A stretch of 51,937 nt of DNA from Catajapyx aquilonaris (lineage: Eukaryota), in contig JYFJ02002736.1 in NCBI GenBank assembly GCA_000934665.2, forward strand, positions 1-51,937, read 5' to 3'. This document shows, in pieces, positions 13,201 through 16,200 of the stretch. The stretch's first letter is position 1, and every line of letters begins with the position of its first letter. Below the pieces are notes generated by a model. It did not search any database. It saw only the letters and a program-made list of their open reading frames with translations, and was not told where the DNA came from. The translations under genes were made by a program, and so were the position numbers.

Positions 13201-16200
13201 GACTTTCAAGATGTGTACGTATTTTATTATTCTCACAATGGATCATATTTTGTGTATGTGGCGAACATCTGTAATGTAATATTACTTCTTCCACTGAACT
13301 ACTGTAGAAGCTGGACTCAGAGCAAATCTTAATTTCTTCCCAGGTACCTTGTGACCCACCTGATGGGAGCAGATCTGAACAACATAGTCAAGACCCAAAA
13401 GCTTTCTGATGACCATGTTCAGTTTCTTGTCTACCAGATCCTCAGGGGACTCAAGTACATACACTCGGCAGGGATTATACACAGGGTAAGCCCTCAGGAA
13501 ATTATTTCACCTTGTCCTGCGCAAGTGTGGATTTAAATAACACTCGGGGTGATCGACAATTTAATTATGCATCACCCAGAATGTCGAGATGTACCTTATT
13601 CTGATGTACTGAAATTCCAAATATCCAGGATCTAAAGCCTTCAAATATAGCTGTGAACGAAGACTGTGAGCTGAAGATCCTTGACTTTGGGCTGGCGAGA
13701 CCGACAGAGACAGAGATGACTGGTTATGTGGCCACAAGATGGTACCGAGCTCCTGAGATCATGCTCAACTGGATGCATTACAATCAAACTGGTAAGAACA
13801 GCAGGACTGATCTTGTCTCAGTTTGATTTAGTTTGGAAACAAATAATTTTATTTAGAGTGGTTTTTGTAATGTGGATTCTCTCCTGGCATATCATCAGTA
13901 TTAATAATTAGTTTATGACGATAATTTATGGCCTCGTTTAATCTTTCAGTGGATATATGGTCTGTTGGATGCATTATGGCAGAGCTGCTCACATCAAGGA
14001 CATTGTTTCCTGGGACAGACCGTATCCTTTGAGCAATAATGTTACTCTTATTAAGTATGTTTGTAGTAAACGAAAGCGAGAGAGAGAGGGCAGTGACACA
14101 TTAATATAAGTCTGGACTTAAGTCATGGATTCTGCATGGGAGTAGGTAGGTCTCCATTTGCCTTTTCTCAATGTTACGCATTTTTGGACTTTGGTTTTTC
14201 TGCCCCTAATTCGAATGTCAAGTGCTGCATGGACTTGCATGTCTTCATATGCACACGGGGAGGTTTTTTTTTTTGGTGTAAAATGTTACACAGGCTGGCG
14301 CTTTACATGCGATTCAAAGAGTCAACTCTGGAAATTGTAAGGTCTGCTGTTCAATTCATATATTAATTCATAAACATAGTGCATTAATAATTATAATTGG
14401 ATATGCACGCTGTGAAGTAATTTCAAATTTCCTTGAAGGTATGAGTGTAATTATAGCTTGTTTGCATACTAGTTAAATTTTGTCATCAAAATTATTATTA
14501 TTACGTCATTATTGTGGGTTTCGGCACTTACCTTTGCACACAACGTTACAATAGGATAGAAATGTGATTCTGGAGTTGACTGCAGTTGCAGATGATAAAA
14601 ACCTTTTATTTGGTAATTTTTCCAAGGCAAGAGTGCCTTATATTTTTTTTTTGCATGCACTGGAATGTTTCCCCTTAAGCCTTGCCAATTTAGATATCCA
14701 CCAACTCAATCTCATAATGGAGCTGTTGGGAACCCCAAAAGGCGACTTCATGCAGAAGATTTCCAGCGAATCAGTGAGTATATACACATGACATGTGAAC
14801 ATAAGTGTGTGTTTAATGTGTACGTAAATGGAGTCAACGTTTTTTTTACTAGACAAACGAGGGATTTAAAAGGTAAATAATGGAACCGTATTTTGTGTGC
14901 CAGCCTTTTGGGATTTAGTAGTAAAAGTTAAGTTTCCTTTACGAAATAAATGTCAGATATTGATCAACTTGTACGCATCATGGCATTAGTCGGAACTCCA
15001 AATGATGGGTCGCTGTCTAAACTGTGTAGTCAAGAGGTAAACAAAAAGTAGTACACAAATGCACTTAAGCAAAGCGAGCAAAAGTTGAAAGCAAATGATT
15101 GTGCTTTAGTTGTGTCTGTGAGCTTATTGTTGGGCTTTTGTGTCACACCACATTTTATATTATTTTTATCATTTTGGAGGGAAAAAACACTTGGAAATTT
15201 GCCACAAATCTTTTTTGCAGTGAACGAAGCCTGCATGTGCGAAAAGTCACTTTTTGGGAGCAATCTCCTTAACTGAACACTCTTTCAGATATTGATCAGC
15301 TAACCCGTATTCTAGTGCTTTGCGGCACTCCTAATGAGGAAACACTTAACAAAATAACAAGCGAGGAGGTATCGTAATCATTATGAAATTAAAATTGTTA
15401 ATTTTTGCATAACTTGTGGCGACTGTAGTTGATTTGCTGTTGCATGTAAATGATGTGATGTACATTTAACAAGGGAATTAGTCATCGAATGTAATGTTCA
15501 CTGAATAATGAGACTGAATTTACCACTCCTACTGAACTGTGTTTTAAATATGTTTATCCTAAATTAATACTCCTTTTTAATTGCAACTATGTGAGATTCC
15601 TGCATTACTGCCTTGTGCATAGCGGTTACTTGAACCAATCATTTGAAGTGATGACATTTTTATTGTTATTGGAGGCTTGGTTATCCCGGGATGAAGGTTG
15701 TAATTTTAACGATTGGATTAATAGTTCCACTCATTAGTTTCACATGATTCCAAGAAACATTGACATGGAATTAATGTAAAAACTAGTTCTCTGGGGCCCT
15801 GAGAAAATCCATTGCCATTATCCTTTGAACATTCTAACAAATGTATGTGTTTGGTGAAAGTTAACGAGGATTGTGTAACGTAGGGGCTGCATGTTTGCAC
15901 GATTAAATGCACTTACAGTATATCGCAAATGGCTGCTTGATCTCTGCCCAGTACTAATGGTGTCCTTGTGGTTTTACAGGCTCGAAACTACATAAAATCA
16001 TTGCCACCTATGACGAAGAAGGATTTCAAGCAGGTTTTTAAGGGAGCTAATCCACTCGGTGAGTACCTTTGTTCATTGCCAGTTTCTAGTAGAGCAAAAC
16101 TCCAAACTTTTGATGTCCACAGCCATTGATCTCCTGGAGAAGATGCTGGAGCTTGACGCAGACAAACGACTGACTGCAGAACAGGCTCTGGCTCATAGCT

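Follow-up and report, generated by a model that had tools for sequence, protein, structure and literature searches.

A putative cassette of three mutually exclusive p38 exons behind a single U12-type donor in Catajapyx aquilonaris

Alternative splicing involving U12-type introns has been described as almost absent, with JNK, prospero and dUrp named as cases of mutually exclusive use of splice sites of the U12 and the U2 type (Turunen 2013). In the vertebrate JNK genes (MAPK8/9/10), the exclusivity of exons 6a and 6b is attributed to incompatible U12 and U2 sites, the resulting hybrid intron having a U2 acceptor opposite its U12 donor (Chang 2007; Akinyi and Frilander 2021). The unrelated genes TMEM87A/B present an arrangement of the JNK type, in which alternative exons 11/11a are interlocked with a minor intron (Olthof 2019; Akinyi and Frilander 2021). 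Among the p38 kinases, human MAPK14 harbors a pair of alternative exons of 80 nucleotides (nt) and phase 1-0, as listed in supplementary file 3 of Hatje 2017, and Martinez-Gomez 2022 dates this event to 'Vertebrates' (at least). Mammalian MAPK14 also contains a ZRSR2-dependent U12 intron (Madan 2021). Here we analyze a p38 gene in contig JYFJ02002736.1 of Catajapyx aquilonaris (GCA_000934665.2), the 51,937 nt of which are hereafter referred to as the window, and report that its exon 6 is probably a set of three mutually exclusive exons sharing one U12-type donor.

The window contains a single protein kinase gene on the forward strand, extending over approximately 10.5-16.5 kb, for which an exon model with nine positions was built from splice sites and an alignment of insect proteins. 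The inclusion of any one cassette exon in this model yields an uninterrupted frame of 361 codons, and the resulting single-exon models are 87-90% identical to p38b of termite, stick insect and mayfly. The activation loop encoded by exon 4 (13629-13791), which contains DFG, carries the TGY dual-phosphorylation motif that is the mark of p38, and among the PDB matches listed for this exon 59 of 60 correspond to MAPK14 and one to MAPK11. The top homologues of exon 8 (16123-16296) are named insect p38b, MAPK14A or MAPK14B, with identities of 86-91%. The protein collection searched did not contain the exact p38 of this organism, the highest identity for exon 8 being 91% in that collection and 93% among the metagenome loci analyzed below. 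The gene in the window is an arthropod p38 MAPK orthologue (MAPK14/p38b), closest to those of insects.

Exon 5 (13950-14021; 72 nt) ends in FPGTD plus one base, with GGGACAGACC as the letters at its end, and is followed by GTATCCTTT (14022-14030), a 5' splice site of U12 type. Downstream of this donor lie three alternative exons of 80 nt on the same strand: exon a (14694-14773), with donor GTGAGT; exon b (14957-15036), with donor GTAAAC; and exon c (15289-15368), with donor GTATCG. The a type is common in insect p38b proteins and the c type in insect p38b isoforms. All three exons have phase 1-0 and, with the carried-over C, each encodes a stop-free peptide of 27 residues; in pairwise comparisons they share 42-46 of the 80 nt and 12-16 of the 27 residues. 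They hence present the features of a tandem-duplicate cluster, being adjacent homologous exons that agree in length and phase and whose splice sites are intact. The last cassette intron has a U2-type 3' end (15952-15979) composed of TACTAAT (15952-15958), a pyrimidine-rich tract and CAG, with TACTAAT located 22 nt from this acceptor of exon 7 (15980-16058), before which GGTGTCCTTGTGGTTTTACAG also lies. The anatomy proposed in a preliminary description of this locus, with one U12 donor, three homologous 80-nt exons, U2 donors and a TACTAAT element before exon 7, is borne out at these positions.

The cassette exons match residues 229-254 of MAPK14 in the PDB, a segment in which a short loop lies between two helices. 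The swapped segment is located in the C-lobe helices beside the MAPK insert and has a putative role in partner docking, and the a, b and c isoforms may therefore differ in their substrates. The length of the exons was also proposed to act as a frame check, and gene models with zero, two or three cassette exons do acquire premature stops, located 191-380 nt before the last junction. The argument from frameshift stands for zero or two exons. It does not for all three, which add up to 240 nt and leave the final frame unshifted, yet encounter a stop inside the shifted exon b; exon 7, furthermore, measures 79 nt and not 80.

Compared with JNK, this layout is a mirror image. The 72-nt alternative exon of JNK (MAPK8) is homologous to exon 5 of the window and ends in FPG(T/R)D, and JNK duplicates this exon, upstream of the U12 intron, into two copies that each carry a U12 donor. 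The window p38, in contrast, has one U12 donor and three U12 branch/acceptor units, and the hybrids between its alternative exons are of the U2-donor/U12-acceptor kind. The precedent invoked in the preliminary description consequently holds for the kind of site incompatibility, but not for an identical layout. The peptide ends suggest that JNK and p38 may use the same ancient intron from opposite sides. The exon pair of human MAPK14 bears out the earlier statement that vertebrate p38-alpha has two alternative exons at this position (Hatje 2017): the pair occupies the same place in the protein, with the same length and phase, and one human exon shares the KISSES ending with the a-type peptide, the difference being that MAPK14 has two exons and the window three.

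The U12 5' splice site has the consensus RTATCCTT and the U12 branch site the consensus TCCTTRAY. By itself, the RTATCCTT octamer is not rare, with 7 matches in the ~52-kb window against 3.5 expected. The exon preceding the donor provides additional context. According to Kwon 2023, an exon that ends in AG never precedes a validated U12 GT-AG intron; exon 5 ends in CC. A second occurrence of GTATCCTT, at position 10103, directly follows CAG; on the basis of the same rule it was rejected as a U12 donor and judged to be a chance match. The same source reports a motif at the 3' boundaries of validated U12 GT-AG introns, consisting of CA(G/C) followed by AU across the boundary. Exons b and c present it as CAG followed by AT, and exon a has TAG followed by AT.

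Branch-like motifs precede each of the three exons. The motif before exon a (CCCCTTAAG, 14671-14679) is weak, with two mismatches to the 8-mer consensus; that before exon b (TTCCTTTAC, 14934-14942) has one mismatch, and that before exon c (TCCTTAAC, 15266-15273) has none. The second-last A of the a, b and c motifs lies 15, 15 and 16 nt, respectively, from the last base of the intron. To define the background, matches to TCCTTRAY located 8-22 nt 5' of AG were counted for the 6017 AG sites of the window, giving rates of 0.18% with no mismatches, 1.9% with at most one and 17% with at most two. The region 5' of exon b is purine-rich and contains no clear pyrimidine tract up to the AG (CGAAATAAATGTCAG), and short pyrimidine runs precede the AG of exons a and c. 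By sequence class, each of the inter-exon introns, as well as the intron that would skip all three exons, mixes U12 and U2 sites. At the six other introns of the gene, the donors are ordinary GT sites (GTGAGT, GTACGT, GTAAGC, GTAAGA, GTGAGT and GTCAGT), and an Rfam scan of the window returned no match.

An additional element was observed in the last cassette intron, approximately 160 nt before exon 7, where a copy of the donor core (TATCCTTTGAACA, 15819-15831) shares 12 of 13 bases with positions 14023-14035. This copy is preceded by T and is therefore not usable as a GT or AT donor; it may constitute a U11-binding decoy or a remnant of duplication. One of the related loci described below (L031) has TTATCCTTA in the equivalent intron, and the insect-like loci are without it.

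Conservation of these signals was assessed by scanning metagenome contigs with the exon-8 peptide, which yielded 80 loci (L001-L080) on which the exon peptides of the window were mapped and the splice signals read. The donor core GTATCCTT follows the homologous exon in six of the seven genomic loci covering it (L014, L045, L024, L046, L049 and L053, but not L029), and is also present in L054, a near-copy of L053. A branch motif with at most one mismatch, located within 6-25 nt, was found before 17 of 26 alternative-exon acceptors, coming from 17 sources with the window included, versus 2 of 16 exon-7 acceptors; near-duplicate loci within these counts (L001/L002/L006, L003/L007 and L053/L054) reduce the number of independent cases. 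In loci bearing the U12 donor, CCTTAAC precedes every c-type exon, and a-type exons are preceded by a weaker CCTTAGC (L003, L007, L014 and L045) or, in the window, CCTTAAG. The conservation of these motifs in introns that are otherwise unalignable led us to accept the weak motif of exon a as real. The donors following the cassette exons of U12-bearing loci are all of non-U12 type.

The number of cassette exons varies among loci. In the termite-like loci L003 and L007, the ant-like locus L045, and L014, a c-type exon lies downstream of an a-type exon, their signals resemble those of the window, and no b-like exon was found between a and c in any of the four. A more distant, marine locus (L024) contains two cassette exons, five loci (L046, L049, L050, L053 and L054) contain one each, and the cassette is absent from the fungal Hog1-like loci (L055-L080). 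In the compact locus L029 (525-1166), exons of b and c type persist although the donor reads GTACGG and branch motifs are absent; exon c is followed there by a GC donor. Overall, the layout is kept in arthropod-like loci and in one further invertebrate-like locus, which supports the anatomical part of the earlier proposal of an invertebrate version and, as judged from exon order and splice signals, indicates that the cassette is conserved outside the vertebrates. On a separate 20-kb contig (L028, 9773-10174), exon 5, an a-type cassette exon and exons 7 and 8 are contiguous, representing an intron-free copy in this region.

The sequences collected from a relative provide evidence for a choice among three exons. 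L009 is a spliced transcript carrying an a-type exon, and its open reading frame (ORF) is identical to P0127 and P0128; the same a-type cassette is shared by P0129 and P0130. L010 (1-640) has exon c already spliced to exons 7 and 8, yet still includes the U12-type intron upstream of c, which contains a b-type exon with its own AG and a GTAACG donor. The two sequences are 100% identical across the 722 nt downstream of the cassette, indicating that they belong to the same gene. Furthermore, the full-length protein P0122 carries exactly the b exon of L010, and its 15 differences from the L009 ORF all fall within residues 227-251; a b-type cassette is also present in a related sequence (P0123). 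The gene of this relative (L009/L010/P0122) makes mRNAs with only a, only b or only c, and the three-way choice is real there. In addition, the joining of exon c to exons 7 and 8 in L010 ahead of removal of the upstream intron fits a slow excision of the U12 intron, and suggests that removal of the U2 intron precedes that of the U12 intron.

A further b-type mRNA, P0100, starts its cassette 12 nt upstream of the usual AG. In L010 (201-226), a perfect TTCCTTGAC is located 13 nt before the corresponding junction point, and an intron ending there would close with TG rather than AG. The two slightly differing records of this junction may represent a non-AG U12 3' splice site chosen by distance.

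Taken together, these data make it probable that the p38 gene of the window contains a mutually exclusive exon set organized through one U12 donor and through U12/U2 pairing. According to this model, exon 6 would exist as three tandemly duplicated, mutually exclusive copies, and the intron following exon 5 would be of the GT-AG U12 type, with one donor and three branch-site/3' splice-site units. The minor spliceosome would link exon 5 to one of the three cassette exons, whatever precedes the chosen exon being removed with the intron, and the major spliceosome would then join the U2 donor of the chosen exon to the only good U2 acceptor downstream, that of exon 7. The a-b, a-c and b-c joins (U2 donor with U12 3' end) and the joining of exon 5 to exon 7 (U12 donor with U2 acceptor) would be disfavoured as mixed pairings. 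The reading frame would act as a second safeguard, with escaping transcripts carrying premature stops. In Catajapyx aquilonaris itself, the use of all three exons and their dependence on the minor spliceosome are predicted from the genomic sequence. The three-way exclusive choice put forward in the preliminary description is thus observed as single inclusion of a, b or c in the gene of a relative, and for the window it is extrapolated from the conserved layout.

Several observations weigh against this model. The branch distances of the window (15-16 nt) exceed the reported optimum of 11-13 nt to the 3' splice site (Turunen 2013). Taken by itself, the motif before exon a is weak, its two mismatches corresponding to a background rate of 17%. 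In their crude pyrimidine fraction, the cassette acceptors (0.55-0.70) overlap with that of exon 7 (0.60), and the CTTAAC before exon c, together with CTCTTTCAG, could serve the major spliceosome. The persistence of b- and c-type exons in L029, which lacks U12 signals, indicates that a cluster can be maintained without them, and the termite-like, ant-like and L014 loci without b raise the prospect that exon b is on its way out here too. Moreover, under impairment of the minor spliceosome, a join between a U2 donor and the MAPK12 3' end of U12 type has been seen (Akinyi and Frilander 2021), and U2 snRNP can recognise U12 branch sequences (Kwon 2023). Given these two reports, the lock cannot be absolute. 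Of the earlier claim that the hybrid introns cannot be spliced, the mixing of site classes survives in the sequence, but the MAPK12 join and L029 speak against its absolute form.

These same observations bear on the possibility that the exon set is real and exclusive, but that the U12 intron is merely an inherited feature of MAPK genes, exclusivity arising from the 80-nt frameshift, transcript decay and ordinary regulators. In favor of this explanation, every wrong combination of exons yields a premature stop, L029 retains two cassette exons in the absence of U12 signals and, as documented for MAPK12, a U12-type 3' end can be joined to a U2 donor; Hatje 2017, furthermore, finds frame incompatibility in 60% of human clusters and U2/U12 incompatibility in only 5 clusters. 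The branch motifs, however, are kept before each duplicated exon across distant lineages, even though the surrounding intron has diverged, and they are presumably used, since an unused motif would not be kept. The lack of a clear pyrimidine tract likewise suggests that exon b needs the U12 route. We therefore regard an incidental U12 intron as unlikely, and the exclusive set organized by U12/U2 pairing as the better account of the locus. Within the latter, the chances that U12/U2 incompatibility, rather than frame surveillance, is the main enforcer are roughly even.

A second possibility concerns exon b, which could be an unused relic in this species, with the locus acting as a two-way a/c switch as in insects. 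The 149 cassette peptides collected comprise 74 of a type, 51 of c type and 24 of neither, and only a handful of the latter are b-like (window exon b, L010, L026, L029, L031 and P0100). This scarcity is in line with a relic, as are the absence of a b exon between a and c in L003, L007, L014 and L045, and a donor (GTAAAC) and one-mismatch branch motif that are not optimal. A protein search with the b region of L026 returned a single match, which was not b-type. On the other hand, exon b keeps an open frame, its AG and its GT, and the 12 residues that are invariant among five b-type exons are all retained in it. Exons of b type were identified in L010, L026, L029, L031, P0100, P0122 and P0123, the copy in L026 being contiguous with its flanks, and b-type mRNAs exist in relatives (P0122, P0123 and P0100). 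In a tree of exon types, based on 26 columns and 105 rows, too little sequence to settle orthology, and with 64 of 102 branches unsupported, exon b of the window is nearest to the b exons of L026 and L029. The evidence hence makes a relic exon b improbable, and is more consistent with a functional third exon in the U12-linked set.

Exon choice by competing long-range RNA pairings, involving a docking site and selectors as in insect Dscam, was also considered. A region of the last intron (~15634-15666) is complementary to two collinear segments around exon b (14941-15010), defined by inverted repeats I4 (16 nt, 88%) and I7 (15 nt, 80%), and a duplex could thereby form between the last intron and exon b together with its 3' splice site. 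Although the resulting duplex (-21.8 kcal/mol) is the best of 154 sliding windows and is reached by only 6 of 500 shuffles, this modest pairing is not compelling and the mechanism is very improbable, given that a single exon is concerned, that a second site scores -20.2 and that no docking element common to a, b and c was seen.

Beyond exclusivity itself, the U12-linked exon set allows for a more specific form of regulation, in which competition among the three U12 branch sites for one donor bound by U11 would determine the p38 isoform, with minor-spliceosome activity shifting the a:b:c ratio. The one observation that points to graded branch strength is a conserved asymmetry between a weak a and a strong c site: exon a, which is transcribed first, is preceded by a conserved weak site (CCTTAGC or CCTTAAG) and the last exon, c, by a conserved consensus CCTTAAC. 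The b exon of the relative has a consensus motif, and no conserved grading can therefore include b. We consider this form of regulation doubtful. Were it to operate, p38 would tune its own substrate-docking surface through the minor spliceosome, p38 activity having been reported to raise U6atac levels (cited in Olthof 2019). The cassette would then date back at least to the ancestor of the pancrustacean arthropods, and perhaps to that of bilaterian p38, and its use would help explain the retention of the MAPK U12 intron, which alternative exons flank on opposite sides in JNK and p38.

The principle at work in this locus is not new, as it mirrors JNK exons 6a/6b and the MAPK14 pair. In insects, a and c cassettes alternate within one gene in automatic annotations of p38b isoforms X1/X2 (P0085/P0084 in Homalodisca and P0110/P0109 in Bicyclus), and the insect-type loci analyzed here place the two exons in the genomic order a then c. 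The claim of novelty in the preliminary description, whose author knew of no account of such an arrangement, was accordingly too strong, since the insect pair is already annotated and the MAPK14 pair shares its length and phase. In the literature covered, the scope of which excluded most subscription journals, neither an arthropod p38 cassette nor one with three exons was found to be described, and the same holds for a layout with one donor and several branch sites, for U12 signals at the MAPK14 exon pair and for a mechanism behind the insect isoforms. The new elements are thus the third (b) exon, the one-donor/several-branch-site layout and the conservation outside vertebrates. They extend the p38 alternative-exon event from vertebrates to arthropods and one further invertebrate-like locus, a distribution that may reflect either common descent or convergence. 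They also provide a conserved case of one U12 donor with two or three branch/acceptor units, which could serve as a natural system for the study of 3' splice-site choice by the minor spliceosome.

The U12 donor also misleads gene predictors. In 5 of the 121 proteins examined, it is read through as '...TD RIL...', which shows both the conservation of the donor and its capacity to confound automatic annotation. Public models that mishandle this junction include P0004, P0010, P0036, P0045 and P0052, and one cricket model includes a and c together.

The remaining coding exons of the gene, all on the forward strand, follow the exon model described above. Exon 1 (10522-10628) starts with the ATG at 10522 and encodes the glycine loop GSGAYGQV, exon 2 (13026-13214) is followed by the U2-type donor GTACGT, exon 3 occupies positions 13344-13485, and the last coding exon (16391-16470) runs through the TGA stop. 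A (CAG)n run is located at 10316-10335, approximately 190 nt 5' of the start codon. Among the neighboring sequences, ORFs on the forward strand at 25581-28144 match BAH and AAA ATPase domains, an ORC1-like combination, and an ORF on the reverse strand at 18985-19452 matches the zinc_ribbon_6 domain.

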